Shown one piece after another: positions 5,254 through 54,494 of a stretch of 64,000 nt of DNA. Every line of letters begins with the position of its first letter. The first letter of the stretch is position 1. Below the pieces are notes generated by a model. That model worked only from the letters and a program-made list of their open reading frames with translations, did not search any database and had not been told where the DNA came from. Source of the stretch: Bacteroidales bacterium. Its GTDB lineage: Bacteria > Bacteroidota > Bacteroidia > Bacteroidales > Prolixibacteraceae. A program made the translations under genes and the position numbers. The stretch covers positions 1 through 64,000 of the forward strand of contig JAAYAG010000060.1 of the NCBI GenBank assembly GCA_012719495.1. The letters are read 5' to 3'.

Positions 5254-5255
5254 AA

Positions 5256-9540: not shown

Positions 9541-9569
9541 ACTATTGATATAAAAGATAACTTATCTAC

Positions 9570-10331: not shown

Positions 10332-10339
10332 TTTACCAA

Positions 10340-12280: not shown

Positions 12281-12297
12281 AGTATGAATTCCTCCTG

Positions 12298-13896: not shown

Positions 13897-13898
13897 CA

Positions 13899-14885: not shown

Positions 14886-14941
14886 TTTCTTCTTTTTAAA
14901 ATTGACCTAAAAATAGTGTGTTCTCAACATCATTGCAATTC

Positions 14942-14979
14942 AAAAAAAGAGGTTGCCGAAAATGTACCCCGACAACCTC
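14942..14979 (-). terminator. Terminator hairpin downstream of the flotillin gene
   Basis: GAGGTTG…CAACCTC 7-bp stem flanked by an A-run (plus strand), i.e. a T-run on the minus strand. Confidence 0.5.
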
Positions 14980-14998
14980 ATTCTTATCTTAAAAGTGA

Positions 14999-16408: not shown

Positions 16409-16458
16409 GGTAAAAAATTTTGGGTTTCTATTTGTTTAAATAATTGGTGTTGTGTGTT

Positions 16459-17040: not shown

Positions 17041-17289
17041 AAGCGTTGTGTTTAGTTCCTGATTAAAAGTATATAGAATTTTTGAATCTTTTTCAACAAA
17101 AAATATTTTTTCTTAGTTAGTCGAACATTTTCTTGAATTCAACACGTTAAGCATCGCTATTCTATTTATTTTAATTACATCTACACATTAAACTCAACAC
17201 ATTAATTCTTTCAAAATGTATTTTCTAATCAGAAAATGAGTTTTTATGCTGTTTGACAGTTTTTTAAAAGAAAAGAAAATCATATATTT

Positions 17290-17739
17290 GTGATGGGAGA
17301 ATTTTTTAGATTAAGCATGAAAGTATTACAATTTATTGGGGGAATTGTATTTCTTTTCATTTTTGCTTCGTGTTCGCACAATGCAGAGATATACAATGGT
17401 AGCCTACCCGATGGGAGTGTGGGGATAAGCTACAAAGTTCAAAAAAAAGTAACTGACAAGTTGCTTCTTGAAGTCATTAATTTTGAAGATACCCGTTGCC
17501 CGGTTGGCGATGTTTGCAGTAACCCTGGCTATGTTGATGTAGAGATACGGGCTTCTTCTGGTATAGACATTACAAGTACAACCCTACGTTATAACGATTT
17601 TCAGCCTTGCGATTTAAGCCGCGACACTATTTTCAACTATGTGGTTGAGTTGGTTAAGGTAACTCCGTTCCCTTATGCTGACAAGCCTGCTCAAAATGCT
17701 GAAACATACCGTTTCGCTGTGGTTGTTGAGGAATTATAA
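17290..17739 (+). CDS. Hypothetical small lipoprotein
   Basis: Signal peptide with lipobox-like …FIFASC. 149 aa, with paired Cys (CPVGDVC, C…C). Confidence 0.4.
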   Translation: MMGEFFRLSMKVLQFIGGIVFLFIFASCSHNAEIYNGSLPDGSVGISYKVQKKVTDKLLLEVINFEDTRCPVGDVCSNPGYVDVEIRASSGIDITSTTLRYNDFQPCDLSRDTIFNYVVELVKVTPFPYADKPAQNAETYRFAVVVEEL

Positions 17740-17740
17740 T

Positions 17741-18886: not shown

Positions 18887-18984
18887 CTCTCTTAAGTATT
18901 TATTTCTTATGAAAACAAAACATTGCAAGCATTATGCCATCTTGTTTTCAAATTATTTTTGTCTCGTTACAAATATACGTTGTG

Positions 18985-24300: not shown

Positions 24301-26843
24301 CCTTCGTACGACCAGTTAATCTTCATTCCCACATAATCGGGGTATGGCGAGTAGGGTTTCGAGATGCTGTTGATGCTGAAATCGCCGCCCTCTTCAAAAA
24401 CTTTGGTTGTGAAACTTGCATTCAGAAATCCATTTACATTCTTGTTGGTTTTCAAGTCGAAGGTGATATCTGTTTTTCCCTCCTGATTAAGTTTTCCATC
24501 AAAAATAGTTTGGTTGTTGACCGTATTTCCACCGAAAGGCGTAGAGAAATCGTAATCTTTGAAATTGTCGAACTTGGGTGCTATTTGGCTGAATGACACA
24601 TCGACACGGGCAGCAAGGTTTTTGGCCGGCATTCCGTGCAACCATTTTGCCTCCAGTTTTCCTTTCGAACTTCTTTTTGCGGAGAGAATTTTATCGTTGA
24701 AACTTAAATCAATTTTCAGTCGGTTAGGTTTAACGGTTTCAACCTGAATGCTTTTGTTGAACTGGCTTCCACCGGCATTTACAACTAGCCGCCAGTTCCC
24801 GGTTGGGTCGTCAGGATTGGTCTTGAAATAGAACGGATAAATTGATTTTTCGCTCTTGTTCCTGACCATTTTCTGAACAAACTGACCTTTGGGGTTAAAT
24901 ACTTCCATTACAAGCGGATGCCCTTCGGGTAAGCTTTTCAGCTTGTCTTCGAGAATGAACGAAACGTAGACCGAATCGCCCGGGCGCCAAACACTGCGTT
25001 CGCCATAAATGAAGCCTTTCATACCCTTTTGAACGCTTACGCCTGAAACATCAAAGTTACTGAGCGACAGGCTGGTTCCATCGTCAATTTTCAGGTAGCC
25101 AATCTGCTTGTCTTTTTCGGCAATGACTAAAAATGGATCGAACTCAGTTTTCACCGAAACCATTCCTTCTGAGTTGGTTTTTGCTTTTGTAAGAAACTGG
25201 TTCTGAAAATCGTAGAATGAAATTTCTACGCCCGATTCAGGCTCGGCAGTTAGCAGGTTCGAAACGTAAATGTTGGTGTTTTTGTTCTGCCCTGTTTTTG
25301 CAATAATGCCAAAGTTAGAGCCTAATATGTTGCGTTTTAAGAATTTATAAGGCGAATAATATGCGTATTTGCAAGGATCATCGTTTTCATCCCACTCGTT
25401 GTAATAGGTGTAGAACACATCCGAGTACTCCTTATCGGGGTTTTCCTGTTCATCTTCAATTGGTACAAATTTGTTCGATTGTTCATCTTTCGATTCGCAA
25501 GGATAGGTCGAATACTCCTTCCGGAACCCAATTTCGATGTTGTAAATGGCACCGGGTTCCACGGTAATAATTTTTGTCAGGTCGAGGTTGAAAGCGTTCC
25601 AAGTGTTCAGATCTTTGGGTCCTTTGTTGGTCAAGTCGACCTTCATGCGTTTCACCGTGCGCCCAACCTGATGGAGGCTCCAGATATTGTCGAAATTCTG
25701 ATTTTGCAGAAATGAGTGGATGTTGTTCTTGAATATCTTGGTAATACGCACATCGACAGCGTTGAGCGAAGTAGCCTCGAATGGAAAATAGAGCCCGGTA
25801 CTCTGCGGCACAATAACCCCTTTCCCCAACAGCCTTATCTGAGGTTTCGTGCCTCCAAAATTGAGTTGTTCTATGTAGTTCGAACCAAGTATATATCCCA
25901 GTTCGCTTTCGATAGAAGCATTCAGTTTGAGCGTTTTTGTGCCTGTAATTTGTTCCGAAGGATAAATCTTCAACAAGTTCCGTTCAACCGAAACCTGGCT
26001 AATATTTTCGTTGTCGAGTTGGATCAAACCGCGTAAATCGATCTGATTTTGAATAGGATCTGAAAATGATATTTCAATATGCTGATCGGGATTATTGATG
26101 ACCTGAACCGAGGTTACAGCAAAATCTTTTAACGAAGGAACTTCAACTTTTATGGAGCCCTTCCCGTTTTCGAGGTCTATTTTTCCCCCGGCCCATTCAA
26201 CTTCAACCTCCGATTTCTGTTCTTTGCGCTTGATTTCTAAAACCCTAAAAGAGTGTGTGTTCGATTTTGCCTGGTGATTCCACAGAAGTGGCAGTTTGTC
26301 GCCATCTTGTTCGGCAGTAAAAATTTCTTCAATCTCTTTGTCGTCGATCAGGTCGGAAGTAACAATCTCGATGGGGAGTTCATACGTCTTGTCGTTTTTA
26401 TCGGAAATTGAGAGGCCGCGTTCCGAAACCCTTATCTGTTTGGTCGTTGTGTTGAAATTGAACGTCAGCGTTGAAAGCTGTTTCGACACTTTCATCAGTT
26501 TTGAAAGCTTCAGTTTGCCTTGGTACGACGCGTCCCAATCGAGCAAATTAGTTGGTTTGAATTCGATGGCGTCGGTATTTGCCCACACTGCTTTTCCATC
26601 AATTGAAGGGGAGAACGAAAGCACGGAGCTTGAAACTGTTGAACCAATTTCTTCTGATGAAACTAGCTCGGAGGTGAATTTGATCACAATTGCATCGGAG
26701 CGTTTTATTTGTCCCGATGTAACGCCGTACACAAACTCGTGAAACGACTCAATTGACGATGGTGTTCCGGCATCTCTCTTTTTGCATCCAACAAAAGCAA
26801 TCAGCAGGGTAATTGCAACGAATAGGATTGTTTTTAGCTTCAT
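21348..26843 (-). CDS. Bacterial alpha-2-macroglobulin family lipoprotein (YfhM-like), 1831 aa
   Basis: Lipoprotein signal MKLKTILFVAITLLIAFVGCKK. Thioester motif GCVEQ (…RYPHGCVEQTTSSVFPQ…). Very large multi-domain beta-rich protein. Stop TAA overlaps the pbpC ATG (TAATG). Confidence 0.85.
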   Translation of the reverse strand: MKLKTILFVAITLLIAFVGCKKRDAGTPSSIESFHEFVYGVTSGQIKRSDAIVIKFTSELVSSEEIGSTVSSSVLSFSPSIDGKAVWANTDAIEFKPTNLLDWDASYQGKLKLSKLMKVSKQLSTLTFNFNTTTKQIRVSERGLSISDKNDKTYELPIEIVTSDLIDDKEIEEIFTAEQDGDKLPLLWNHQAKSNTHSFRVLEIKRKEQKSEVEVEWAGGKIDLENGKGSIKVEVPSLKDFAVTSVQVINNPDQHIEISFSDPIQNQIDLRGLIQLDNENISQVSVERNLLKIYPSEQITGTKTLKLNASIESELGYILGSNYIEQLNFGGTKPQIRLLGKGVIVPQSTGLYFPFEATSLNAVDVRITKIFKNNIHSFLQNQNFDNIWSLHQVGRTVKRMKVDLTNKGPKDLNTWNAFNLDLTKIITVEPGAIYNIEIGFRKEYSTYPCESKDEQSNKFVPIEDEQENPDKEYSDVFYTYYNEWDENDDPCKYAYYSPYKFLKRNILGSNFGIIAKTGQNKNTNIYVSNLLTAEPESGVEISFYDFQNQFLTKAKTNSEGMVSVKTEFDPFLVIAEKDKQIGYLKIDDGTSLSLSNFDVSGVSVQKGMKGFIYGERSVWRPGDSVYVSFILEDKLKSLPEGHPLVMEVFNPKGQFVQKMVRNKSEKSIYPFYFKTNPDDPTGNWRLVVNAGGSQFNKSIQVETVKPNRLKIDLSFNDKILSAKRSSKGKLEAKWLHGMPAKNLAARVDVSFSQIAPKFDNFKDYDFSTPFGGNTVNNQTIFDGKLNQEGKTDITFDLKTNKNVNGFLNASFTTKVFEEGGDFSINSISKPYSPYPDYVGMKINWSYEGWKKLNIEENHVIKVATVDEDGKPVSLNGIQVKIYELEYSWWYDSNDENLASYAGTTHYTPVISKTISSVNGKAEFTIKPDEDMWGRHLMLVTSPNGHTSGQVIYFGWDWGRDRQNGGAQVLALVAEKTNYKVGEKVTIGFPANKNATALITFENGNGVIGQQWLKNLNSFTEYTFEATPAMSPNVYVSISLIQPHGQTVNDLPIRLYGVIPIMVEDPETRLQPVINMPAEVRPLKEFTINIKEKNRKAMDYTVAIVDEGLLDITNFKTPDPWGSFYAREALGVKSYDMYNYVMGSFGSRIESMFAVGGSNNGVDMSKKKAERFKPVVKVLGPFHLDANKEASHKVALPQYVGSVRTMVIAASEGKYGNAEKAVAVREPLMVLATLPRVLSPDETVDLPVTVFAMNESVKKVQVHISSNPNIQIIGRADTTIAFSSTGEKNISFRIKSASKQGFAKVKVEVQSGTEKSFNEIELDVRLPNLPETTSQFKLLAAGEKWVCEQSAFGIEGTNKLQLEISSLPPLNLGRRLEYLIRYPHGCVEQTTSSVFPQLYLPSLLSLSANDQLRVKNNVTAGIERLQRFQLANGGFTYWPGSSYVEEWASCYVGYFLLEAEKAGYLVPSNMKKKWLEYTSKAASQYSINSQYSYNNYIQAYRLYLLSVAGEPQVSAMNRLRTSSNLNNQTKWLLAGAYALASMKDAAYKLIDFRNMTPDKPDYECYGSELRDKGIILQTLVALKEWDQAAKVALEVSKSISTDDWYSTQSTAYSLVALSSFAVQTGSNDEINFKQTINGETTAIRSKAKFYSIEPQFNKSGNATIVVENSGKGSLFVNVFNTGAKKDVDLTSAEKGMQMEVKYFDSNMNPIDTKSLQQGTDFTAMVMVKNKTAARVKNIALSQLFPSGWEIINTRLAPGAGINKNSPFDYCDFRDDRVYIYFGLDSYESKTFTVNLNAAYCGEFIQSPVICSDMYDNNFMSKTPGRTVKVVKN

Positions 26844-37448: not shown

Positions 37449-38198
37449 TTATTTTTTTCTTGTCAGGTCTTTTAACCCGTTGATAATGGTTAATGGGTGG
37501 CACGGGTTTCCGGGGATATACAGATCGATAGGATACTTACTCAGAAAACTCCGGTCGATAGCCGGACTATCTCCAAAAATTCCACCACTAATGGCATCTG
37601 TTCCTGCCAGAACTATAATTTTAGGAGCAGGGGTTGCATCATAACAAAGTTGCACCGGTTCGGCCATGTTTTCCGATATGGGGCCTGTAATAAGAATCCC
37701 GTCGGCATGACGCGGCGAAGCAACAAAATCGATCCCAAAACGGCTCATATCGAATTGAACATTGTTGGCGGCATTGAGCTCCCACTCGCAACTGTTATCG
37801 CCTGCTGCTGATATTTGCCTAAGTTTTAACGATTGCCCCAATACTCGATGCACATCTGACCTCACTTTAGTAGGATCAACTTCAATGGTTCTATCTTCGC
37901 CTTCGGTTACAACGAGCCTTTCACGTATGTTGGTAGAAATTTTATAATCTTTGGTGAATTCAATTTTTGTTGGAAAACGCCTGGCACATTCACCACAAAA
38001 TGTGCATTTCCCCAAATCGATACGTACCGGCGATGTTTCAATGGCTCCTACCGGGCAAACCAACTGCAGCTCGTGTTCGTCAACTTTTTCGAGGCTAATA
38101 ACCGGCCGCCCCCTGAAAATTCCCGGAACCTTTGCCGAAGTAACATCGGGAATAAATTGCTTCCCCTGATGGTATACTATTTTTAAATTTTCTAACAT
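37449..38198 (-). CDS. Fusion of a single-cluster 4Fe-4S ferredoxin domain with a NuoB / [NiFe]-hydrogenase small-subunit-like domain (HyfH-HyfI-like); Cys ligands incomplete
   Basis: N-terminus CPVGAIE + CTFCGECARRFP, one cluster's worth of Cys. C-terminal NuoB-like SPRHADGILITGPISENMAEP…IIVLAGTDAISGG…IPGNPCHP. Canonical CCxxE and GxCxxxGG cysteines are replaced. Confidence 0.7.
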   Translation of the reverse strand: MLENLKIVYHQGKQFIPDVTSAKVPGIFRGRPVISLEKVDEHELQLVCPVGAIETSPVRIDLGKCTFCGECARRFPTKIEFTKDYKISTNIRERLVVTEGEDRTIEVDPTKVRSDVHRVLGQSLKLRQISAAGDNSCEWELNAANNVQFDMSRFGIDFVASPRHADGILITGPISENMAEPVQLCYDATPAPKIIVLAGTDAISGGIFGDSPAIDRSFLSKYPIDLYIPGNPCHPLTIINGLKDLTRKK

Positions 38199-38230
38199 GG
38201 CTCTGTGCTTCTTTTTAATCTTGCTGATAA

Positions 38231-39730
38231 CTACAAATCGTGACCAGCATACGAAAGGTTAAAACTCTTGTTGCAAATTGGAAAATCAGAAATTTCGTTA
38301 TTCCTTACCGCCAAGGCCAATGCCAGCCAATTATGGAACGAAGGATCTTTTATCTTGTAAATGAGCAACTCTCCTTTTTCATCGGTAATGGCACAATGGC
38401 ATATTTCGCCGCGCCAACCCTCAACCAACGCGATAGAAAATGCATTTGGCGAAGAATTTTCCAGATTATTTACCTCACTGGTAGCATCTGGCACATTGTC
38501 AAGCATTTCCTTAATGTATTTTATCGACTGCCTGATTTCGTTCCTCCGAATCTGGAAGCGGGAATATACATCGCCATGGTGCTTAATAGCTGGTTCATGT
38601 TTCATTTCGCTATACAGATAAAAAGGATGCGTAGAACGAATGTCCCGGGTTAGCCCGCTCATGCGTGCGGCCATTCCAACGGCACCTATCGAAAGTATAT
38701 CGTCATATGAAACAATCCCGGTTCTTTCAAACCTTGATAACGTACTTGGTAACCGGCGGATTTGTTCAACGATCTCTTCAAAGTCAGGTTCATATTCTGT
38801 AAAGATTTGCGCTAACCTTTCGGCAAGAGCCGGGGTAAAGGGGAACTGATTCCGGCCAGGCCTAATGAGCCCTTTCGACAAGCGGTTTCCACCCCATTCC
38901 TGCATAAAGTTTATCATTGGGGTACGCAAACGTCCAAGTACCGAACTCCCAAGCTGATAGGCTACATCGGTACACATGGCGCTCAAGTCGCCGGTATGAA
39001 TAGCAATCCGCTCCATCTCGAGAGCAAGAGTACGGGCAAATTGAATATCTTTTGATGGTTTAAACCCGCACAAACTTTCCCAAACCATCGAAAATGCAGT
39101 GGTATGACCTACAACAGTATCTCCTGTAATATTTTCGGCTAACGTTGTACGCTGCAACAGGCTTTTTTTATCGAGGAAAAGCTGTTCAACCCCACGGTGC
39201 TGAAAACCAAGCTGTATTTCAAGATGAAGAATTTGTTCACCATTACAAATAAACCTGAAGTGACCCGGCTCGATAACACCGGCATGAATTGGACCTACAC
39301 CCACCTCGTGAAGTTCTTCACTATCGATACTGTAAAACGGGTAGTTGGCAATGGTTTTCGATTTGTCGGCACGGTTAAACGGGTAACGTACCGGTTTTAA
39401 CCAAGGATGACCAACAAATCCAATCCCGAAATTTTCGTGAATCTCGCGCTCAAATTTCTCGAAGCATAAAAGCTCTTTTGATAACGAACGCAAGTTATCA
39501 TCATTATTTACCACACACGATAATACATAAATTTGATGGGTCAGATCGTCGGCAAGGCAACATATCAATTTAATTTTTCCATTCAGGCGATATCCAAAAT
39601 AATTGGCGCAATGCCTTTCGGTTTGCCCAGTCATCAATTTCGATATTTCATCGAAAAAAACAGGATAACTTACCTCAGGAATTTCGGCAATGCCAATGGT
39701 GGTATTATTTTCTATCTGTATGTAATTCAT
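38231..39730 (-). CDS. Fused NuoC/NuoD-like (hydrogenase-4 large-subunit HyfG-like) protein lacking [NiFe]-binding CxxC motifs
   Basis: 499 aa. NuoC-like N-terminus. NuoD/HycE-like core (GPIHAGVIEPGHFRF…GFQHRGVEQ). No CxxC pair anywhere in the protein. C-terminus DFPICNKS occupies the place of the DPCxxCxxR Ni/Fe ligand motif. Confidence 0.75.
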   Translation of the reverse strand: MNYIQIENNTTIGIAEIPEVSYPVFFDEISKLMTGQTERHCANYFGYRLNGKIKLICCLADDLTHQIYVLSCVVNNDDNLRSLSKELLCFEKFEREIHENFGIGFVGHPWLKPVRYPFNRADKSKTIANYPFYSIDSEELHEVGVGPIHAGVIEPGHFRFICNGEQILHLEIQLGFQHRGVEQLFLDKKSLLQRTTLAENITGDTVVGHTTAFSMVWESLCGFKPSKDIQFARTLALEMERIAIHTGDLSAMCTDVAYQLGSSVLGRLRTPMINFMQEWGGNRLSKGLIRPGRNQFPFTPALAERLAQIFTEYEPDFEEIVEQIRRLPSTLSRFERTGIVSYDDILSIGAVGMAARMSGLTRDIRSTHPFYLYSEMKHEPAIKHHGDVYSRFQIRRNEIRQSIKYIKEMLDNVPDATSEVNNLENSSPNAFSIALVEGWRGEICHCAITDEKGELLIYKIKDPSFHNWLALALAVRNNEISDFPICNKSFNLSYAGHDL

Positions 39731-39731
39731 G

Positions 39732-41159
39732 TCATTGAGGTAAAAGCATTATACTTTCTTTAATCAGTTCGACCAATTCGGCAGGCGGGTTAAGCCCCAA
39801 ATAAATGGCCAGTGCAAGCAGAACAAACTGCGAAAGAGATTCCCACGGGCTAATTTTCGGCACATTGCTATCGTCGAAATCAACTGGAGGAACAAAAAGG
39901 ATTTTAAGAATATTTTTTCCAAAAGCCCATATAATAATAGTGAGCAACAGAAGCAAAGCGGCAAGAACAATAATTTGCTTAGCCTCGAAAAGCGAGCGGA
40001 ATATCATGAATTCGCTCACAAAAAGACCCGAAGGGGGCATGGCTGTGGCACTAATGAAACCAGTGAGCAACACCATGGCACCGGCAGTATTATATTTGAA
40101 ATAATTTCCAACATTGTAAATACTTTTGTTCTGAAACACCCTATACAGCTGGGTGAACTGCAGAAATAAGCTTGACTTTACAAAAGCATGAAGAATAATG
40201 TGCAAAATGGCAGCATAATAGCCAACACCTCCGGCAGCCACACCCAACATAACCAATCCCATGTGCTCTATACCCGAATAGGCGAGCATACGTTTTATGT
40301 TCTTTACTTTAATCATATACACTGTCGATACAAAAACCGACAAGAAAGCAGCAATACCAATTACCATATTGGCCCAGTGGTGAAGCGGTGTATTGGCAAC
40401 CACAATATAAAACCTGAAGATGCCCACAAAACCAAGGTTCATCAGCACGCTCGAAAGCAAGGCTCCAACGGGTGCCGGGGCTTTGTCTTTAGCATCGATA
40501 CCGGCAGTAAACATTGGCACTAAGCCAAGCTTCGCCGTAAAACCAGTAAAAATAAACAAGAAAGCCAGGCGCAGCCAAAACGGGTTCAGTTTAGCACTAT
40601 TCGTAACAAGATTAGTGTAACTAAGATCCTGAGAACCTGCCTGTTCAAGAGCAAGGCTTAAAAACAGGATACCGATGAATACAAAGGTGATGCTTATAGC
40701 ACAAATAAATACATATTTCCAGGTTCCTTCGAGGGCTAATTTGTTCCGGTGATGGTATATTAAGGCAGAAGCACTCAAGGTGGTAATTTCGGTGAAAATC
40801 CAGGTAACGGCAATGTGATTGGCCAAATATCCAGCACTTATCGCTGTGATTAAAAGCACTATAGATGCATAATATATTGAACGGGTTTCGGGAGGTGCCG
40901 GTTGGTCCTCGAGGTAAATGTGACTATGAAAAATTGCAGCTACCGAAATAATACTCATTGTAACCAAGAGCAAGAATGCAAGCGAATCATAGGTAAAATA
41001 GGTTAAATCGGTACTCCTTAAGTTATTGTATGAATAGAATGTAAGTATCCATTGCAACACCAGAAACAGGCCAAGAAGCCCGAAGGTAAGTTGTTTGTTC
41101 CGGATGAAAAAGAGTCCGATTACTATTGAAAATGCTCCTATCAGATATATTCCAATCAT
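39732..41159 (-). CDS. NuoM/NuoN-like (HyfF/HyfD-like) proton-translocating antiporter-type subunit
   Basis: 475 aa, about 14 TM. Conserved antiporter-like core (…GIEHMGLVMLGVAAGG…). Confidence 0.7.
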   Translation of the reverse strand: MIGIYLIGAFSIVIGLFFIRNKQLTFGLLGLFLVLQWILTFYSYNNLRSTDLTYFTYDSLAFLLLVTMSIISVAAIFHSHIYLEDQPAPPETRSIYYASIVLLITAISAGYLANHIAVTWIFTEITTLSASALIYHHRNKLALEGTWKYVFICAISITFVFIGILFLSLALEQAGSQDLSYTNLVTNSAKLNPFWLRLAFLFIFTGFTAKLGLVPMFTAGIDAKDKAPAPVGALLSSVLMNLGFVGIFRFYIVVANTPLHHWANMVIGIAAFLSVFVSTVYMIKVKNIKRMLAYSGIEHMGLVMLGVAAGGVGYYAAILHIILHAFVKSSLFLQFTQLYRVFQNKSIYNVGNYFKYNTAGAMVLLTGFISATAMPPSGLFVSEFMIFRSLFEAKQIIVLAALLLLLTIIIWAFGKNILKILFVPPVDFDDSNVPKISPWESLSQFVLLALAIYLGLNPPAELVELIKESIMLLPQ

Positions 41160-41176
41160 TTGATCTGCTTTAACGG

Positions 41177-41809
41177 TTAATAATCCTTGAGGTTAGTAAG
41201 TTGCTCTACGTCAACATCTTTAAATACGTCTCCAATTTTATTGAGAAAAATGCCCAGAATGAGTACACTGGCAAAAATATCGAGCATAATGCCCAGGTTC
41301 ACCAAGTGCGGCATTTCGTTCCCCACAGCCAGCGAAAGCACAAAAACCCCGTTTTCAATAATCATATAGCCCATAACATGGGTAATAATTTTCCTTCGGG
41401 AAGCAATTATATACAAACCCGAAAATATGGTCGAAAGGGCTACAACAAAGAACATCTTATCCAGATGAGTATCTTTTATGCTGTTCGAAAGCAATATGGT
41501 TGCAATCACTATGGCTGTTGTTATCAGCAACGAAACAAAGTTGGGAAGATAAGGCTCAGCCTCTCGGGTGATATTGTTCCGCCTTAGCAGATATGCTAAA
41601 AACATAGGTACAGCCACCGCCTTGAAAACAATGGTCTCGAGCATGATCAACACCAAGTTCAACGTGTTAATCTCATTCAACTGAAGAAACACGACAAAGA
41701 AAAGCAACACGCCCTGAACTGCCAGTACTTTAGTGTACGACAACAGTCGGTTGGCTATCGAAAGATAGAATAGCGTGATGATGAAAACTATCAGAAGTAC
41801 GTCTATCAT
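41177..41809 (-). CDS. HyfE-like small membrane subunit of hydrogenase-4-type complexes
   Basis: 210 aa, 6-7 TM. C-terminus VDVEQLTNLKDY resembles the E. coli HyfE C-terminus (…LDVNNLTALKG, recalled from memory). Confidence 0.5.
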   Translation of the reverse strand: MIDVLLIVFIITLFYLSIANRLLSYTKVLAVQGVLLFFVVFLQLNEINTLNLVLIMLETIVFKAVAVPMFLAYLLRRNNITREAEPYLPNFVSLLITTAIVIATILLSNSIKDTHLDKMFFVVALSTIFSGLYIIASRRKIITHVMGYMIIENGVFVLSLAVGNEMPHLVNLGIMLDIFASVLILGIFLNKIGDVFKDVDVEQLTNLKDY

Positions 41810-41828
41810 TGTTTTACATTTTTTATCG

Positions 41829-42734
41829 TTAATTGAACTTCCCTAAAATGAGTATGGCTCCGAAGAATATCAAGAGCGAAACCGATGTGAGCGCCACAAT
41901 AAACTGTGCGTTATGGTTCATTCTGAAACGGGCCATAAACGATTCAATCAGCCCCACGACAACAGCCATAAGGAACTGGATAATAAAGAACAAGGGTATC
42001 GCATACTGATAATCTACCATCCCCACAAAAAGGTTTACAATGAGCGCTCCGTAAATGGCAAATTTCAAGTATCCGGCACTTAGCAAAAGTCCCAGATCGA
42101 AGCCACTGTTATCGAGGATCATAACTTCGTGTATCATGGTGAGTTCAAGGTGCGTTTTAGGATCGTCGATAGGCATACGGCTATTTTCAATCATAGCAAT
42201 CATTACCAGAACAAAAGTTGCCAGTGTAGCCAAGGCATAACTCAGGTACGAGCCAATATGCAATGCCGCAAATATTTCCTGAAAAGACGTATACCCTGTA
42301 AGCAAGGCAAATGAGCCCATAAGGATGAATAAAGCCGGTTCGGCAAACATCGAATACAATGCTTCGCGGCTGGCACCCATTCCCTCAAAACTACTTCCGG
42401 TGTCGAGTGCCGATATAATGCTGAAAAACTTGCCTAACGCCAAAACATATGCAAAAAAGATAAAATCGCAATTGAAACTAATCAACCCTTTTGATTGACC
42501 GAAAGGAACAACAAGCATAGCCATCACTACCGATGAAAAGTAGATTGTTGGTGCAATTTGAAAGATGATACTGCTTGTTTTGCTGTATACAGCCCCTTTT
42601 TTGAAAAGACGTATAACATCTTTGATTGGCTGCATAATTCCTGGTCCTTTCCTTCCCGAAGCAAGGCTTTTGGTGCGCACCACAATGCCAGTGAAAAAGA
42701 AGGCAGCTATTACAATTAAAAATAGGCTCAACAT
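41829..42734 (-). CDS. NuoH-like (HyfC/HycD-like) membrane subunit
   Basis: 301 aa polytopic. Position in the cluster and size match HyfC/NuoH. Confidence 0.55.
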   Translation of the reverse strand: MLSLFLIVIAAFFFTGIVVRTKSLASGRKGPGIMQPIKDVIRLFKKGAVYSKTSSIIFQIAPTIYFSSVVMAMLVVPFGQSKGLISFNCDFIFFAYVLALGKFFSIISALDTGSSFEGMGASREALYSMFAEPALFILMGSFALLTGYTSFQEIFAALHIGSYLSYALATLATFVLVMIAMIENSRMPIDDPKTHLELTMIHEVMILDNSGFDLGLLLSAGYLKFAIYGALIVNLFVGMVDYQYAIPLFFIIQFLMAVVVGLIESFMARFRMNHNAQFIVALTSVSLLIFFGAILILGKFN

Positions 42735-42736
42735 AA

Positions 42737-44764
42737 TTATAGTTGTTTTATAAATTCAAAAAAATCCAGAATCAATCCATATACCAACGGGATCATTATC
42801 AGTGAAATGATAAATATTATCCCGTATAATATCGAGAATTGCAATTTCCCGTTATTAAGGAATACAAACTTTCCTAAAAAGCTCTTAATTCCTCTTATTG
42901 GCCTGTCTATCAAGCTCTTTTCCAAACGATCATAAGGATGCGTCTTAAGGGCTGCATGTTCGGGGAAGATTCCCGATACAGGCTTTTCTTTTTGGCCAAT
43001 TAACAGCAAATGACCAAATAGTTTACTATAACTCCTTACATACGATGATGCGGTGTATTGTAACTTTGGTGTGGGTGAAACATATCCGCACCCCCAGGTA
43101 ACCGAAGATGTGGTAACCCTGTTTTTTGTGACCAACTTCCGCAGAAGGAACATCAACACAATAAGCACGATAAAACCTGTTGAAGCAAGTCCGATGTATT
43201 GCAATGTATCAGCAATACTTCCCTGAATTGGAGCAAACTCCCCTACCCTGTTTCCTGTGAGCACAGAAGTTGCATGGCTGACTACTCCAAAAAATCCCTG
43301 AGGAAAAATCCCTATACCAACAATAAGAAGAGCAATAAAATATAAAGGAATACGCTGAATAGCCGGAGCTTCATGTATTCCGTGTACGAATTTTTTCCTT
43401 GGTTCCCCTAAGAAAATTGTCCCAAATGCTTTGGTAAAACAAAAAAGGGCCAACCCTCCAATGAGCACAAGTGCCAGGGTTGAAAAAATAATCACAATAA
43501 GCGGGACGAGCGTAGCATTTTGTACCCATTGATATAAGCTGCTGTAAATCAAAAACTCAGAAACAAAACCATTCAGTGGCGGAATACCGCAAATGGCAAC
43601 AGCTGCTATAAGAAATAATAGGGTTGTGTGGGGCATTTTCTTAATAAGCCCGCCTAGATGCTCAATATTTAACGTATGAGTCGCCTGATAAACAATGCCT
43701 ACAGTATAAAACAGCAAGGATTTAAACAGTGCATGGTTTAAAGTGTGCAACAATGCCCCCGAAAAACCTAACCAGGCAACCAATTGATTACCATTGCCAA
43801 GGCCAATACACCCAATGCCTATCCCCATACCAATAATACCAATATTCTCGATACTATGATAAGCAAGTAACTTTTTAACATTGTGCTGAATAATTGCCAG
43901 CATTACTCCATATAACCCCGAGATGGCCGAAATAATCAGAATGAAATAGCCTATACTGGTATAGTCAGTTTTTATTAATACCAACATCCGCATAATTCCA
44001 TAAATCCCAATCTTAATAAGCACTCCCGACATGATTCCCGAAATATGGGTAGGAGCCGCCGGATGAGCATGGGGCAACCAGGTATGAAACGGGATAAAGC
44101 CCGCTTTGAAAGCAAAACCTATAAAGAAGCAAATGAAAAGGAAAAGACCAACCGAAGTGGGGTTCGACTGTGAATATTCAGTAATAGATGCAAAATCAAA
44201 ACTACCGGTTTTCACAGCAACCCAGATAAAACCCAGCATCAGAAAAAGAATAGAAACATGGGACTGAATCAGGTAATTAATACCCGCTTTCAATGTCGAC
44301 ATCTTATCTCCTTCAAAAATTACTGCAATAAATGCCGAAAGAGCCATCAGTTCCCAAGTAATGAGAAACACAAGGCTGTTCTGTATAACGCAAAGACTTA
44401 CAAGAGACAGGTGAAGCACAATGAATGCAATGCAGTGCAATGAAATCTGCTTTTGTTGCTCCCGGTATGCTTTAAGGTAGAAAATTCCATAAAAGCCCCC
44501 TGTAATAAAAACAATATTGATAATAAGAATAAACCATGCCGAAAGAGCATCAATCTGGAGCCTGATTGGGCCAGTTACCGCACTCCCGCCAAAAACATAT
44601 TCTTCGGCTCCTCCGACAATTGCGCTAATAGCTATCGCAGACGATAACCCGGCAACCAGCAAGAGTTCTAAATATGTAACTATTGCTTTTGCTTTCTCCT
44701 TCATAAAGGGGATGGCAACAACAGCCAACAAAGGCATCAGCAGATAAGCAGATATGTTACTCAT
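42737..44764 (-). CDS. NuoL-like (HyfB / MrpA-like) antiporter subunit, copy 2
   Basis: 675 aa. Conserved …WLPHAHPAAPTHISGIMSG… and …GIIGMGIGIG… antiporter motifs. Confidence 0.75.
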   Translation of the reverse strand: MSNISAYLLMPLLAVVAIPFMKEKAKAIVTYLELLLVAGLSSAIAISAIVGGAEEYVFGGSAVTGPIRLQIDALSAWFILIINIVFITGGFYGIFYLKAYREQQKQISLHCIAFIVLHLSLVSLCVIQNSLVFLITWELMALSAFIAVIFEGDKMSTLKAGINYLIQSHVSILFLMLGFIWVAVKTGSFDFASITEYSQSNPTSVGLFLFICFFIGFAFKAGFIPFHTWLPHAHPAAPTHISGIMSGVLIKIGIYGIMRMLVLIKTDYTSIGYFILIISAISGLYGVMLAIIQHNVKKLLAYHSIENIGIIGMGIGIGCIGLGNGNQLVAWLGFSGALLHTLNHALFKSLLFYTVGIVYQATHTLNIEHLGGLIKKMPHTTLLFLIAAVAICGIPPLNGFVSEFLIYSSLYQWVQNATLVPLIVIIFSTLALVLIGGLALFCFTKAFGTIFLGEPRKKFVHGIHEAPAIQRIPLYFIALLIVGIGIFPQGFFGVVSHATSVLTGNRVGEFAPIQGSIADTLQYIGLASTGFIVLIVLMFLLRKLVTKNRVTTSSVTWGCGYVSPTPKLQYTASSYVRSYSKLFGHLLLIGQKEKPVSGIFPEHAALKTHPYDRLEKSLIDRPIRGIKSFLGKFVFLNNGKLQFSILYGIIFIISLIMIPLVYGLILDFFEFIKQL

Positions 44765-46767
44765 TTTAAAACATTTAATCCAGTGAGGACAACTATAAGT
44801 ACCACAAACAAAATTCCATATAATACATACGATTGCATACGGCCATTTTGTATAAACTTGAAATAATTGGCACTAAACACTATCCGTTGAGTAACAAAGT
44901 TAAAAATATAGTACTCAAAAAAGTCTTTATAGTGCGATACATATTTTCGCTTCTTTGGAAATATTTCACCATCAGAAAGTTCTGCATATTTCTTCTCCTC
45001 TATCAGTAAAAAACTGAATACCTTTCCCAACGGTTTCGAAAACGATTTCCCGGTATACTGCATTTTGCTATTGGGGGCAACATAGGAGCAGCCCCAGGTT
45101 CCTTCGGTTTGCTGTTCCCGGTTTTTCACCATTAGCGAACGAATTCCCCAAATTATTCCTACAACGACCAACAATAAAATAAAATAATAGTTAACAGCAA
45201 CAATATTGTCTGAATAACTGGCAACTGACGAAAAAATGGCAATATTCTTCAAGCCGTCTTGAAGTATACATTGAATACTATTCAGGAAAAAGCGCGGAAA
45301 GAAAGCAACAAGAAGCATTACTGCTACAATAATGTATTGCGGAAACAGCATAATTTTCGACACTTCTTGCGGAACTGTATGCAATTTTTTCCGTGGTGAG
45401 CCAAGAAAAACCACCCCAAATGTTTTCGAAAAGGTAAGGATAGAAAGCCCTCCAATGAGGCTAAGCCCTGCAAATGATAAAATTACAAGACTGGTTTGTG
45501 TAATATCACCCGTTTTCAACGCTTCAATCAGGCCGTTATATAAAATGAATTCCGACACAAATCCGTTGAAGGGTGGCATACCCCCAATGGCAATAGCGCC
45601 AATCAGGAACAATATTGCCGTTTTGGGCATTTGCTTTATCAACCCGCCCAATTTCTCCATATCGCGGGTGTGGGTTTGCTGATACACTGAACCGGCTGAG
45701 TAGAAAAGCAGCGATTTGAATAGCGAATGGTTCAGCACATGCAACAGGGCGCCCGAGAATCCTAAAAAGAACAGTAACGGGGAGTTGTTGCCGATGCCAA
45801 TCAAGCCTAGCCCAATCCCAATGCCAATGATGCCAATATTTTCGATGGTACAATAAGCCAACATCCGTTTAAAATCGCGGTGAACAGCTGCATTTAGTAT
45901 TCCGTATAACCCGGTGAGCACCGATACCGAAAGAATAATTTCGCCGAGCATCAAAAAATCGGATTCAAGAAAAGTAATGACCCTGAATATTCCGTAAATA
46001 CCCAGCTTTACAATTACACCCGACATTACACCCGACACGTGCGACGGAGCCGCCGGATGCGCATGGGGCAACCAGCTATGAACAGGAATAAAGCCGGCTT
46101 TTATTCCAAATCCTACGAAAAAGATCAGAAAAAGCCATATGTTGTTATTATTGGCAAAGAATGTTGAAAAAGCATCGAAACTAAATGAGCCAGTAGTGGC
46201 ATATACCCAGATAAACCCTATTGTGAGAAGAATAACACTGATATGCATCTGAACCAGGTAATTAAGCCCAGCTTTCAGGGTTTTTGGTTTGTGCCCGTCG
46301 AAAATTACAAGAAGCATCGACGACAGCGACATTATTTCCCAAGCTACCAGGAAAGCAAAACTATGCTGCAACATACAAACCCAAACCATTGATAGCTGAA
46401 AAACAACATACAACGACCAATGAAGGGAAAGTTTAGCAGAGTTGTTTTGATAACTTCGAAGATAGCCAATGCCATAAAATGCACCCGTAACTGATGTAAA
46501 GTTGATAATAAGTATGAACCAAGCTGAGAGGCCGTCGATTTTTATCGGGATACTTCCCAAAAAAGAACCGGCAAAAATTGATACAGAACTTGTTGCCCCG
46601 CCTAATGCCTGAAGTGCAGGAATACTTGTTGACAATGCAGTAATAACACTAGCCAGAGCGGCAATATATGCTTTGCTATTTGGTTTGACTAACACGATAA
46701 AAACTATCGCAATCAGAGCAGTTGCCCACGACAGGTTCAATAATAATTCAGTACTTATCATTATCAC
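44761..46767 (-). CDS. NuoL-like (HyfB / MrpA-like) antiporter subunit, copy 1
   Basis: 668 aa. WLPHAHPAAPSHVSGVMSG motif. 4-nt ATGA overlap with copy 2. Confidence 0.75.
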   Translation of the reverse strand: MIMISTELLLNLSWATALIAIVFIVLVKPNSKAYIAALASVITALSTSIPALQALGGATSSVSIFAGSFLGSIPIKIDGLSAWFILIINFTSVTGAFYGIGYLRSYQNNSAKLSLHWSLYVVFQLSMVWVCMLQHSFAFLVAWEIMSLSSMLLVIFDGHKPKTLKAGLNYLVQMHISVILLTIGFIWVYATTGSFSFDAFSTFFANNNNIWLFLIFFVGFGIKAGFIPVHSWLPHAHPAAPSHVSGVMSGVIVKLGIYGIFRVITFLESDFLMLGEIILSVSVLTGLYGILNAAVHRDFKRMLAYCTIENIGIIGIGIGLGLIGIGNNSPLLFFLGFSGALLHVLNHSLFKSLLFYSAGSVYQQTHTRDMEKLGGLIKQMPKTAILFLIGAIAIGGMPPFNGFVSEFILYNGLIEALKTGDITQTSLVILSFAGLSLIGGLSILTFSKTFGVVFLGSPRKKLHTVPQEVSKIMLFPQYIIVAVMLLVAFFPRFFLNSIQCILQDGLKNIAIFSSVASYSDNIVAVNYYFILLLVVVGIIWGIRSLMVKNREQQTEGTWGCSYVAPNSKMQYTGKSFSKPLGKVFSFLLIEEKKYAELSDGEIFPKKRKYVSHYKDFFEYYIFNFVTQRIVFSANYFKFIQNGRMQSYVLYGILFVVLIVVLTGLNVLK

Positions 46768-47025
46768 AGATCAGTAAAAATACTATTTCGGATGCAAGGT
46801 AAGGGATTATTCTGTACTCTCAGAAAGAAGAAAGCTATTTATAACCCCAATAAATTCTCATTTTGGATAAAACTAGAAAATGAGGGGGCGAATTTAGAAA
46901 ATTAAGGATATCGAGCATGCTAATTATGAGATGTTTTTTTTATATAATCTGTGGAGTTAATGTTTGATTAAGCTAAAAATAGGTTCAACCTAAAGAAATT
47001 AAGTTTTATATTTGCGCCTCAATTA

Positions 47026-47098
47026 GCCTTTTTAGCTCAGTTGGTAGAGCAGCTCATTCGTAATGAGCAGGTCGCGGGTTCGAGTCCCGTGAAAGGCT
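47026..47098 (+). tRNA. tRNA-Thr (anticodon CGT)
   Basis: Acceptor GCCTTTT/GAAAGGC, D-arm AGCTCAGTTGGTAGAGC, anticodon stem-loop GCTCA-TTCGTAA-TGAGC, T-loop TTCGAGT. A hairpin plus T-run follows at about 47127-47160. Confidence 0.85.
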
Positions 47099-47393
47099 CT
47101 GAGACAACCATCTAAATTTATTATAAAGCCTGAAATCAATGATTTTCGGGCTTTTTTATGTTTCATTGACAACAACTCAGTAATAGGAACTATTTATTGT
47201 TGTATGGATTGTTGAGTCAATGTGCTGCCATTCAGAACTTAATCCATAAGCTTTATTAATCGGTAAGTTATTCGCATTTTTAACAATTATCGTTAAATTC
47301 ACCTCTTCAAATTAACCAATATAAATCGAACCAATTGAAATTTGAAATACGTGAATTAATCTACTTTAGCTAAAGACTTAATAACTTATACTT

Positions 47394-52175: not shown

Positions 52176-54494
52176 ATGAAACCATTTATCAATCAAATTA
52201 AAGGAAACCGCTGGCTGAATGGGTTATTTGGCCTCGAAAAAGAGAATATCCGTGTCGATCAGCAAGGAGTTTTCGCACAAACACCTCATCCTGCTTCTTT
52301 TGGCGACAGGGTGAAACATCCGTTTATTACGACCGATTTTTCAGAAAGCCAGATCGAGATGATTACGCCGCCATTGTCTTCCATCTCTGAAGCGCTGGGC
52401 TTTCTCGAAACCATTCACGACCTGGTAAGTCTTGAGCTGAACGGAGAACTTCTTTGGCCACAAAGCATTCCTCCGGTTATTCCTGCCGAGGAATCGATAC
52501 CGATTGCCCGTTACTCAAACCTGGGCAAAAAAGAAGAGGAGTACCGCAAGAACCTCGCTTTGAAATACGGGCGCAAAAAACAGGCACTCTCCGGCATTCA
52601 TTTCAACATTTCGCTCAACGAAAACCTGCTTCACCAACTAAATCGGGAGGTTGAACCAACTGTGCCTTTTACCGAATTTACCGATTCGGTCTACCTGAAA
52701 ATTACCCGGCAGCTTTTGCGCTACCGCTGGCTTTATGTGTTGTTGTTTGGCAGCAGCCCTGTTGTTGATCCAAGTTTCGACCTGAAATGTCGTAGCCTGC
52801 CCATCTACCTCAATACAAAGTCGTATGCACTTTCGTTCCGGAACAGCTGTTTTGGATATGGTAACCTCGAAGAGCTTTTCCCCGACTATCAATCGGTAAG
52901 CGGATACAAACAAAGCATCGAAACAATGGTGAAAACCGGAAAGATTTCGGCACAAAAAGAACTGTATGCTTCGGTCAGACCAAAGTTTCTGAAGGATTCC
53001 GAGTCGGTTTCGTATGTCGAGGTAAGGTTTATCGACATCAACCCGCTGAGCAAGATTGGTATTACCCCCGAAATGCTGCAATTTATTCACTGGCTTGCCA
53101 TTTATGGCTTGTTAACCGACGAACAGGACGACTTTGTCCCAGACTTTCAGTCAATAGCAAGCCGAAACCATGAAAACATTTCGCACAACGGACTGCACAA
53201 CGATATTACGGTCATCTCTTCGTCGGGCGAAGTGGTAAACGTGTGGGACGAAGCCCGCCGCATCATCAGCTCAATGACCGAACTGTACAGCAAGCTTGAG
53301 ATTGAAAATAGCGGTTACCGAAACATGCTCGACTATGTTAGTGCGTTGGCCAATGACCCGGCAAAGCGTGATGTACACCAGATTATTGCCGGGACTGAAG
53401 AGAAAGGGTACATTGCATTTCATCTCGAAAAAGCCCGTCAGTATTTAGCCGAAAGCCAAAAAAACAGCTTCAGCTTCAAGGGGTTTGAAGACCTTGAACT
53501 TTCGACCCAACTTGTGCTGCGCGAAGCAGTCAGAAGGGGTGTTGCATTTGAACTGCTCGACCGTGAAGAAAACTTTGTCCGCCTTAGTCGCGACGGGAAT
53601 GTGCAGTACATTCAGCAGGCAACCAAAACTTCGCTCGATAATTATGCCGGAATTCTGGCCATGGAAAACAAAGTAGTGACAAAGAAAATACTTGACGGCC
53701 AAGGAATACGGGTGCCAAAGGGGATGAACTATTCCGATGCACAAACGGCTCTGTCCGATTTCAGCCTTTTTGAGGGACAAGCAATCGTCATCAAGCCCAA
53801 AACAACCAACTTTGGCAAGGGCATCACCATTTTGAAAGAGAATACCAATGCCACCGTTTATGAACGAGCGGTTGCCATTGCTTTTGAAGCGGACAACAAC
53901 ATTCTGATCGAAGAATTTATTGCAGGCAATGAGTTCCGCATTTTTGTAATGGACAATGACGTGGTGGGAATACTGCATCGTGTTCCGGCCAACGTAACCG
54001 GAAACGGTGACCTGACAATCGGGGAGCTGGTGGCTATAAAGAACGAAGATCCCTTGCGGGGAAAAGGTTATCGGACACCGCTCGAGAAGATTAATCTGGG
54101 CGAGGCCGAAGAGATGTTCCTCGCTTTGCAGGGAAAAACATTCGAAACCATTCCGGCCAATGGTGAAACCGTCTTTCTGCGCGAGAATTCGAACATCAGC
54201 ACCGGTGGCGACAGCATCGACTTTACCGACGAGATACCTGAATCGTACAAGAAAATTGCCGTGCAGGCAACACAAGCACTGAACGTCAGAATCACGGGGC
54301 TCGATATGATCATAGCCGATTACACACAGGAGGCCAATGCCGAAAACTATGCTATTATTGAGATGAATTTCAACCCGGCAATTCACATTCATTGCCATCC
54401 ATACAAAGGAAAAAACCGCAGGCTGAACGAAAAACTGCTCGATATGCTGGGCTTTGCCGCACCTGTTGCATTGGGTTCGCAACACAATTTGTGA
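52176..54494 (+). CDS. gshAB: Bifunctional glutamate--cysteine ligase / glutathione synthetase (GshF/GshAB type)
   Basis: 772 aa. N-terminal GshA-like domain (…HPFITTDFSESQIEMITPP…). C-terminal ATP-grasp domain (…EFIAGNEFRIFVMDNDVVG…). Confidence 0.8.
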   Translation: MKPFINQIKGNRWLNGLFGLEKENIRVDQQGVFAQTPHPASFGDRVKHPFITTDFSESQIEMITPPLSSISEALGFLETIHDLVSLELNGELLWPQSIPPVIPAEESIPIARYSNLGKKEEEYRKNLALKYGRKKQALSGIHFNISLNENLLHQLNREVEPTVPFTEFTDSVYLKITRQLLRYRWLYVLLFGSSPVVDPSFDLKCRSLPIYLNTKSYALSFRNSCFGYGNLEELFPDYQSVSGYKQSIETMVKTGKISAQKELYASVRPKFLKDSESVSYVEVRFIDINPLSKIGITPEMLQFIHWLAIYGLLTDEQDDFVPDFQSIASRNHENISHNGLHNDITVISSSGEVVNVWDEARRIISSMTELYSKLEIENSGYRNMLDYVSALANDPAKRDVHQIIAGTEEKGYIAFHLEKARQYLAESQKNSFSFKGFEDLELSTQLVLREAVRRGVAFELLDREENFVRLSRDGNVQYIQQATKTSLDNYAGILAMENKVVTKKILDGQGIRVPKGMNYSDAQTALSDFSLFEGQAIVIKPKTTNFGKGITILKENTNATVYERAVAIAFEADNNILIEEFIAGNEFRIFVMDNDVVGILHRVPANVTGNGDLTIGELVAIKNEDPLRGKGYRTPLEKINLGEAEEMFLALQGKTFETIPANGETVFLRENSNISTGGDSIDFTDEIPESYKKIAVQATQALNVRITGLDMIIADYTQEANAENYAIIEMNFNPAIHIHCHPYKGKNRRLNEKLLDMLGFAAPVALGSQHNL

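Follow-up and report, generated by a model that had tools for sequence, protein, structure and literature searches.

The large subunits of the Ehr (energy-converting hydrogenase-related) membrane complexes lack the CxxC motifs and Ni-Fe ligands of hydrogenases, and their function is unknown (PMC6349859, PMC10284858, PMC7304191, PMC4758237). As set out in Supplementary Note 4 of PMC6349859, Ehr consists of a NuoC–NuoD gene, a NuoI–NuoB gene and genes for HyfB, HyfF, NuoH-like and HyfE-like subunits; published clusters include Geobacter GSU0739-45 and those of Margulisbacteria. The subunits of the Geobacter sulfurreducens complex, GSU0739-0745, have been named EhrA-1, A-2, B, C, D, L and S (PMC7894505), and papers that cite them credit the name Ehr to Coppi (2005) and Marreiros et al. 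(2013). Here we describe an operon of this type, ehrA1-A2-B-C-D-L-S, in a 64,000-nucleotide stretch of DNA from a Bacteroidales bacterium of the Prolixibacteraceae (positions 1 to 64,000 of contig JAAYAG010000060.1, assembly GCA_012719495.1), which is called the window throughout. The operon lies at 37449-46767 on the minus strand, its seven genes are co-directional and tightly packed, and their content agrees with that of the published clusters. The sixth gene, ehrL, had been marked in a first-pass annotation as encoding a hydrogenase large-subunit homolog whose remaining cysteines could point to a different cofactor or quinone-site chemistry. We find instead that the loss of CxxC is the defining published trait of Ehr and not a novel type of site; with its CxxC-less large subunit, the earlier observation therefore describes anew a family already known. 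The EhrL of the window is an ordinary Ehr member within a complex of variant type, the variation residing in the small subunit, EhrS, where three of the four ligands of the cluster next to EhrL have been exchanged in a clade of Bacteroidota.

Ehr complexes are widespread, yet databases routinely label their products as subunits of ‘Ni,Fe-hydrogenase III’ or ‘NADH dehydrogenase’. Recognition of EhrL keeps such genomes of Bacteroidales from being falsely credited with H2 metabolism or a further complex I.

The window operon and the Geobacter operon GSU0739-0745 have the same seven-gene content and order, with a CxxC-less NuoC–NuoD fusion, a NuoI-like/NuoB-like fusion and Hyf/NuoH-like membrane subunits. 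Our comparison with this lineage uses two Geobacter/Geobacteraceae loci (L076 and L080), G. sulfurreducens not being among them. Both have the same operon, and their EhrL proteins are ∼40% identical to that of the window (the query), carry the same C-terminal signature (ISDFP.CNKSFNLSY.G.DL) and fall in one clade with it, apart from true hydrogenases, in a neighbour-joining tree of EhrL. The differences lie at the proximal cluster of EhrS, where the four ligand positions read C-C-C-C in the Geobacter type and D-C-D-N in the window and its Bacteroidota relatives, and at position 495 of EhrL, which is Ala in the query and Cys in many other Ehr. A proximal [4Fe-4S] cluster in the small subunit is typical of canonical Ehr; query EhrS does not have its full set of ligands. 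One of the two loci, L076 (Geobacteraceae), contains tandem complete Ehr operons (5089-12274 and 13416-20545), and its second EhrL is only ∼32% identical to the query.

HycE of Escherichia coli hydrogenase-3 (7z0s_E) and Hyf of the second formate hydrogenlyase (FHL-2) share with EhrL a NuoC-like N-terminal domain, the loop EPGHFR, the proton-pathway His/Arg/Glu and the canopy Arg, and the window operon has membrane subunits of the HyfB, HyfE and HyfF types. In contrast to HycE, the query has no NiFe cysteines and has Asn491 at the position of the canopy Asp. HycB, FdhF, HycH, HycI and hyp genes are missing nearby, and the ferredoxin unit, reduced to one cluster motif, is fused to a small subunit that has lost its proximal ligands. 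NuoD/NDUFS2 and E. coli NuoCD resemble EhrL in fold, in the absence of NiFe cysteines and in their proton-relay residues, but EhrL has Gly203 for Tyr and Glu154 of the loop for His, and the operon is without genes for NuoA, J, E, F and G. The MBS complex of Pyrococcus furiosus (formerly Mbx, 6u8y) likewise descends from a group 4 hydrogenase, has no NiFe and is coupled to modules of the Mrp type. Homology to window subunits can be recognised in MbsL, MbsJ and MbsH, although MbsL is a much weaker match to EhrL than is HycE (E = 7e-15 against 6e-37). As stated in PMC7684303, the chemistry of MBS depends on its proximal Fe-S cluster, for which three of the four ligand positions are non-Cys in query EhrS.

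Identity of EhrL and its former NiFe site

The ehrL reading frame is intact, and from an ATG start on the minus strand, which the first-pass annotation had not given, it encodes the expected NuoC/D-like protein of 499 amino acids. Pfam detects a weak Complex1_30kDa domain (PF00329, NuoC) over residues 50-114 and a strong Complex1_49kDa domain (PF00346, NuoD), an arrangement that indicates a NuoC/NuoD fusion, as in HycE. The closest sequence in the PDB by phmmer is indeed E. coli HycE, followed by P. furiosus MbhL and then by NDUFS2 of complex I. An AlphaFold2 model of EhrL was of high quality (predicted local distance difference test score, pLDDT, 91.6; predicted template modelling score, pTM, 0.92), and a Foldseek search with it placed HycE first (TM-score 0.89, root-mean-square deviation 2.9 Å, 24% identity) and E. 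coli NuoCD next (TM-score ∼0.86). Thus EhrL keeps the HycE fold. No structure nearer to EhrL than HycE was found in the copy of the PDB that was searched, which therefore appears to hold no Ehr structure.

Group 4 [NiFe] hydrogenases provide four cysteines to the NiFe centre, from the motifs L1 (RxCGxCxxxH) and L2 (DPCxxCxxR/H). When EhrL is aligned with HycE, L1 (RVCGICGFAH) lies opposite NITGDTVVGH and L2 (DPCYSCTDR) lies opposite the terminal NLSYAGHDL, and the four metal-ligand positions are occupied by T202, T205, S493 and G496. The former L2 now reads LSYAGHDL. It had been proposed that DFPICNKS stands in place of DPCxxCxxR, but that segment aligns with DAPLIIGS of HycE, upstream of L2. 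In the search of representatives, the true hydrogenases that came nearest read ...VGPIHAGIIEPGHFRF... ERxCGxCxxSH ... DFPLINKSFELCYSCxDR, and since they carry PGHFRF and DFP..NKSF, these two segments are inherited from hydrogenases. Within the motif segments of EhrL, only the ligands changed.

The representatives were the 113 best full-length matches at 31-50% identity, comprising 107 Ehr-like proteins and six true hydrogenases. The ligand positions are C, C, C, C in all six hydrogenases aligned, and in the 107 Ehr representatives they are A/S, S/T, S (99/107) and G (102/107). Because all four NiFe ligands are replaced in the query, EhrL is not a hydrogenase; an active enzyme of this kind is ruled out by the four non-Cys positions together with the absence of CxxC. 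The earlier description of a homolog of group 4 [NiFe]-hydrogenase large subunits that is unable to bind NiFe is therefore well founded, given these ligands and the best match to HycE.

We count 11 cysteines in EhrL (positions 41, 57, 58, 72, 89, 162, 221, 253, 444, 446 and 486), one fewer than the 12 reported previously. As reported, none forms a CxxC, and the sole clustered ones are the CC at 57-58 and the CxC at 444-446. The first-pass annotation had named a frameshift hiding a CxxC as something that would overturn its reading. None was found: the other frames gave only out-of-frame or stop-containing matches, at least 24 contigs from independent samples (JGI, NCBI, ENA and Logan) carry a call for the identical protein, and the C-terminal end, G-x-D-L, is common to 78/78 orthologs extracted from other genomes. 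For these three reasons such a frameshift is excluded.

EhrL is not a plain NuoD either. Its scores against the NCBIfam NuoD and NuoCD models fall far below the cutoffs (150.9 bits against 360 for NF004739, 125.7 against 459 for TIGR01962, and 78.8 against 840 for the NuoCD model NF008728), and the Tyr and His quinone ligands are missing. The quinone-ligand Tyr of NDUFS2 (RLDY in the bovine protein) lies opposite Gly203, which is Gly in 101/107 Ehr representatives, and because of this a NuoD-type quinone site is unsupported. The β1-β2 loop is of the long hydrogenase type, IEPGHFRF, with Glu154 instead of the NuoD His. In this respect the earlier view, that the protein is something other than simple decay to NuoD, holds. 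The domain content of the seven genes, the published architecture and the finding of the same gene order in ∼70 of 80 loci (see below) together identify the gene, almost certainly, as ehrL, which codes for the Ehr membrane complex's large subunit.

Residues of HycE were mapped onto EhrL through the alignment of the two proteins, the numbering of the deposited chain being native + 12 over the aligned region, as judged from motif positions. Functional roles for H188, E193, H284, R395, E437 and R478 of HycE were taken from the FHL structure paper (PMC9474812). In the β1-β2 loop, His188 and Glu193 correspond to H149 and E154 of EhrL; in the proton pathway, His284, Arg395 and Glu437 correspond to H245, R356 and E398; and the canopy Arg478 corresponds to R440. 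Each of the six is kept in 89-97% of the 107 Ehr representatives. The canopy Asp529 of HycE has become Asn491 (N in 68 representatives, D in 24). Specific to Ehr, and near-universal in it, are Ser493 and Gly496, with the counts given above, and Asp204 between the former L1 cysteines (100/107), and the C-terminal residue in Ehr is Leu, not Arg. The C-terminal 20 residues and the β1-β2 loop are near-invariant at an overall identity of ∼40%. These patterns indicate that the family conserves the proton-relay and coupling residues of hydrogenases and complex I, along with a gained Asp204 and with Ser493/Gly496. A different, non-Cys site, formed by Asp204, Ser/Thr205, Ser493 and Glu154, is possible.

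We then considered the two cysteines that had been singled out, one in PGHFRFICNGE (C162) and one near the former L2 (C486). Both strings are present, but the cysteines are not retained from an ancestral enzyme: true hydrogenases have A/V/T/S at the first position and I/V at the second, and as neither residue occurs in the six hydrogenases aligned, both were gained inside an Ehr sub-clade. They are the best-conserved cysteines of EhrL. C162 occurs in 60/113 representatives and 78/78 loci and is replaced by V/A/T/L/M; C486 occurs in 63/113 representatives and 65/78 loci and is replaced by I/V/N/S/T. Because the patterns used in the genome scan (VGP[VI]HAG[VI]I and DFP[LI]CNKS) included the second Cys, its frequency in the loci is biased upward, and 63/113 is the unbiased figure. 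The check on orthologs that had been proposed earlier thus found both residues conserved, and the lack of conservation that would have spoken for plain drift was not seen. The remaining cysteines of the query are lineage-specific, with C253 in 32/113 representatives and each of the others in no more than 17/113.

Nevertheless, we consider it very improbable that C162 and C486, with or without other cysteines, bind a new cofactor or create quinone-site chemistry. In addition to their conservation, the idea draws on their co-occurrence above expectation in the 107 Ehr representatives (contingency 48/11/15/33, Fisher p = 2e-7) and on the extra Cys495 found within the former L2 (SYCG) in many other Ehr. 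The association, however, is confounded by shared ancestry; one of the pair occurs without the other in 26/107 Ehr representatives, each is absent from ∼45% of diverse Ehr representatives, and the query has Ala at 495. The replacements are typical of small, probably buried residues, and true hydrogenases have small or hydrophobic residues at both positions. Two thiols are insufficient for an Fe-S or NiFe-type site, the quinone Tyr is absent, and in the Bacteroidota lineage there is no relay cluster to feed such a site. In the AlphaFold2 model, C162 is at the end of β-strand 157-163 and C486 is inside helix 480-490. We find little to argue for a cofactor bound by Cys: the substitution pattern and the independent occurrence of the two residues suggest that they are clade-typical residues at small or hydrophobic, probably buried positions, not obligatory ligands. 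Together with the published Ehr hallmark, this leaves the earlier proposal of a cofactor or new quinone-site chemistry unsupported. A second Fe-S site built from C41, C253 and C444 was also considered and rejected, as these are exchanged with V/I, A/S and V/S/A, respectively, in other lineages.

The proximal cluster site of EhrS

EhrS consists of an N-terminal ferredoxin-like domain and a NuoB/HycG-like domain. The former contains one complete [4Fe-4S] motif, C48-P49 ... C65xxC68xxC71, which by motif order and the match to a NuoI model we take to be the equivalent of cluster N6b of NuoI. Its four cysteines are kept in the 120 closest homologs and in all loci but two from Omnitrophota (L077 and L078), where the domain is lacking.

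The proximal cluster, equivalent to N2 of complex I, is another matter. Alignment to MbhJ, HycG and Thermus thermophilus Nqo6 places its ligand positions at D134, C137, D201 and N231. Among 66 orthologs and the query, C-C-C-C was found in 35 EhrS, nearly all outside Bacteroidota, the exceptions being L023 and L052, which are labelled Bacteroidota/Bacteroidetes. The pattern D-[C/T/A/V/Y/H/I/D]-[D/E]-[N/A] was found in the other 32 (31 loci and the query), all from the Bacteroidota clade and two of them with A or E at the first position. Over the 120 closest homologs the query residues are almost invariant, D134 and C137 being present in 120/120 and D201 and N231 in 119/120. In the neighbour-joining tree of EhrL, the loci with the cluster-less type of EhrS form one Bacteroidota clade, with L023 nested within it. 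L023, from a Bacteroidota metagenome-assembled genome (EhrS at 6914-7663), is the only nested member of that clade with four Cys ligands, which would mean either more than one loss of the cluster or a replacement of the gene.

As judged from these alignments, D-C-D-N is a real and strongly conserved variant of the Bacteroidota clade, in which the relay cluster adjoining the large subunit is replaced by conserved Asp, Asp and Asn. No description of the variant was found in the searchable literature, which did not extend to Coppi (2005) or Marreiros et al. (2013). The two patterns, CCCC and D-C-D-N, are natural variants with which the coupling between peripheral arm and antiporter can be compared in the complex I superfamily. 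A possible compensating cysteine in query EhrS, Cys233 (in PGNPCHP), was rejected, as it occurs in 1/120 of the closest homologs, only in the query's near-identical cluster, the others having A or T.

Possible roles: a gate, a redox pump or a remnant

The loss of the proximal cluster with retention of the proton relay argues that, at least in Bacteroidota, Ehr sends no electrons to the pocket of the large subunit. With the relay cluster gone, electrons could not reach that pocket; because the proximal-cluster ligands of EhrS are lost, electron delivery to EhrL looks impossible in this clade. EhrL would then have a structural and coupling part without catalysis: as a protonatable ‘plug’ seated on EhrB, the NuoH-like subunit, it would gate or regulate how H+ or Na+ moves through the three antiporter-like subunits of Mrp type. 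The [4Fe-4S] cluster that survives in EhrS would be no wire but a redox sensor or a structural element. In the window, the antiporter-like and NuoH-like subunits are intact, and alignment of EhrD to MbsH, NuoM and HycC shows the TM5 Glu and the TM7 Lys to be present. We put the prospects of this reading, a non-catalytic gating module on an Mrp-type ion translocator with the remaining cluster as sensor or structure, at about even.

Several points weigh against it. The ion-translocation role of Ehr is itself derived from homology only, and the conserved ferredoxin domain and former active-site pocket fit some other redox or chemical activity equally well. At the old cluster site, a different metal could be held by the conserved Asp/Asp/Asn, which would preserve some electron path; the AlphaFold2 model of EhrS (pLDDT 50) is too poor to be informative about the D/C/D/N site. 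No position of EhrL was found to be fixed differently between the CCCC and the cluster-less lineages, and therefore either the pocket was never cluster-dependent or the cluster-less form is functionally alike. Finally, the abundance of the Geobacter Ehr rises on formate (PMC7894505), a hint that the canonical type has some redox link.

The main competing explanation is that Ehr is still a redox-driven ion pump. A low-potential donor such as ferredoxin would reduce the cluster in the ferredoxin domain of EhrS, and electrons would pass on to some substrate. This would sit in the pocket of EhrL, with Asp204, Ser/Thr205, Ser493, Glu154 and Arg440 around it, or else between EhrS and EhrL, in the manner of MBS, where polysulfide is reduced at the proximal cluster. 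A non-standard cluster or metal would, in Bacteroidota, occupy the D/C/D/N site and keep the path open. The four-Cys ferredoxin motif of EhrS is kept, as is a proton-delivery network that serves substrate protonation in hydrogenases and complex I, and acidic residues are strictly held, without drift, at two of the former ligand positions. MBS (PMC7684303) shows that a relative without NiFe can acquire new chemistry, and Geobacter Ehr subunits rise in abundance with formate. On the other hand, the single Cys left at the proximal site is variable within the clade (C/T/A/V/Y/H/I/D), and there is no partner oxidoreductase nearby in the Bacteroidota loci examined. We know of no [4Fe-4S] cluster held by Asp, Asp and Asn with an optional Cys. 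Furthermore, if complex I spacing is a guide, the N6b-equivalent cluster is presumably too distant from the pocket for direct transfer. A redox pump is, on this balance, rather unlikely.

At the other extreme, the operon might be a decaying, non-functional remnant of a group 4 hydrogenase, shaped by plain drift. The loss of the catalytic metal ligands, and in the Bacteroidota clade of the proximal cluster ligands as well, would speak for decay, but the conservation data already contradict it. None of the seven reading frames is broken, and synteny of the operon extends across many phyla; more than 100 cluster representatives match query EhrL at 70-81% identity; and the C-terminal 20 residues and the β1-β2 loop hardly vary, as noted above. 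Moreover, the replacement residues are themselves conserved, both in EhrL (D204, S493 and G496) and in EhrS (D134, D201 and N231), and Geobacter Ehr subunits have been detected in proteomes. We give this explanation almost no credence.

The gating interpretation can be taken a step further, to a version that we regard as tentative and, on the whole, doubtful. Bacteroidota Ehr would be a machine of the complex I superfamily that has discarded the entire electron wire, while its complete apparatus for coupling the peripheral arm to the membrane arm stayed under strong selection. The former NiFe pocket (Asp204, Ser/Thr205, Ser493, Glu154 and Arg440) and the former cluster site (Asp134, Asp201 and Asn231) would now be oxygen-ligand sites for cations or proton relay, and the arm would be an ion/pH-sensing or redox-sensing gate on an Mrp-type transporter. 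If true, nature would here have separated redox chemistry from the mechanism of conformational and electrostatic coupling.

Distribution of Ehr loci and other features of the window

A word-indexed search with EhrL gave at least 8,000 matches. The best 120 were at 70-100% identity, and the few of these with a source name were Bacteroidales, Prolixibacteraceae or Bacteroidota metagenome-assembled genomes. An exhaustive search of representatives clustered at 50% identity gave 5,094 matches at E <= 1e-3. In a scan of one genome per species, 80 Ehr loci were found, in Bacteroidota, Desulfobacterota (Desulfogranum, Electrothrix and Geobacter), Melainabacteria, Spirochaetota, Victivallales, Planctomycetota, Omnitrophota, Myxococcota and others, and the order A(1-2)-B-C-D-L-S is kept in ∼70 of the 80 across phyla. 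One rearranged locus, L022 from an uncultured bacterium (10001-17237), has ehrL first, followed by ehrA-B-C-D-S, and its EhrS ligand positions read A-D-D-N.

A gene with HTH_17 and PTS_EIIA_2 domains (PtsN-like), a possible regulator, lies just upstream of ehrA, mostly on the same strand, in 11 loci (L032, L050, L051, L055, L061, L062, L066, L070, L076, L077 and L079), in which EhrS is CCCC or was not recovered. Neither the window nor the loci of the Bacteroidota clade have this gene. It is a weak pointer to ion homeostasis, EIIA-Ntr of E. coli having a link to K+ transport.

Table 1. Genes and upstream region of the Ehr operon in the window
Feature	Coordinates	Strand	Description	Evidence
Upstream intergenic region	46768..47025	-	Presumed operon promoter; bounded by divergent-side tRNA-Thr	Sequence
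ehrA1	44761..46767	-	HyfB/NuoL-like, antiporter-like; first gene of operon	PF00361 + PF00662; NF005086 1.8e-152
ehrA2	42737..44764	-	HyfB/NuoL-like, antiporter-like; C-terminal extension	PF00361; NF005086 ‘hydrogenase 4 subunit B’ 7.6e-144, under equivalog cutoff
ehrB	41829..42734	-	NuoH/HycD-like membrane subunit; interface to peripheral arm in homologs	PF00146 7.7e-36
ehrC	41177..41809	-	HyfE-like small membrane subunit; NuoK-like C-terminal half	PF00420; NF008556 ‘hydrogenase 4 membrane subunit’ 7.7e-21, under cutoff
ehrD	39732..41159	-	HyfF/NuoN/MrpD-like, antiporter-like	PF00361; NCBIfam ‘hydrogenase 4 subunit F’, under cutoff; PDB MbsH, NuoM, HycC
ehrL	38231..39730	-	NuoC/NuoD-type fusion without metal ligands	PF00329 + PF00346; HycE 7z0s_E
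ehrS	37449..38198	-	249 aa; ferredoxin-like + NuoB/HycG-like	PF01058 + Fer4; NCBIfam NuoB, NuoI partial

The genes of the window operon are listed in Table 1. The two HyfB-like proteins, EhrA1 and EhrA2, are paralogs whose genes overlap by 4 nt; many more distant Ehr operons have a single EhrA. The C-terminal extension of each carries a TWGC[GS]YV motif, which may match the ND3-like loop region of HycC. Antisense reading frames of 100-137 amino acids lie over the ehr genes (for example 38240-38653 on the plus strand), and a few have ‘homologs’ in related loci; in all likelihood these are not genes but shadows cast by the conserved coding strand.

Among the reading frames of at least ∼150 amino acids scanned in the window, there was no hyp, formate dehydrogenase or NuoEF gene, and the same scan found neither a maturation endopeptidase nor a redox partner (FdhF, CooS or ferredoxin subunits) near the operon. 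The operon is flanked by unrelated features (DUF1573, a DMT-type protein, esterases and tRNA-Thr), and a search around the Bacteroidota Ehr loci for a conserved neighbour or partner gene did not find one. Directly upstream of the operon are the tRNA-Thr (CGT) at 47026-47099 and then a strong terminator-like hairpin at 47125-47154, both on the plus strand. An Rfam scan of the window found only two tRNAs. Scans for sigma-70 promoters and for terminators gave results at the level of the shuffled background, such scans not being informative for Bacteroidota.

Elsewhere in the window, a fumarate reductase/succinate dehydrogenase cluster occupies 9570-12987 on the minus strand, with the flavoprotein at 10340-12280 and the Fe-S subunit at 9570-10331; a 229-amino acid reading frame without a Pfam match (12298-12987) may be the cytochrome b anchor. 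Its presence suggests that the organism has an anaerobic respiratory chain based on quinones. At 18985-26843, also on the minus strand, a gene for an alpha-2-macroglobulin (1831 amino acids) adjoins one for a PBP1C-type penicillin-binding protein (851 amino acids), the usual periplasmic defence pair. Finally, the plus strand at 52176-54494 encodes a 772-amino acid glutamate-cysteine ligase/ATP-grasp fusion, a bifunctional glutathione synthetase of the GshAB/GshF-like type that is probably uncommon in Bacteroidales.

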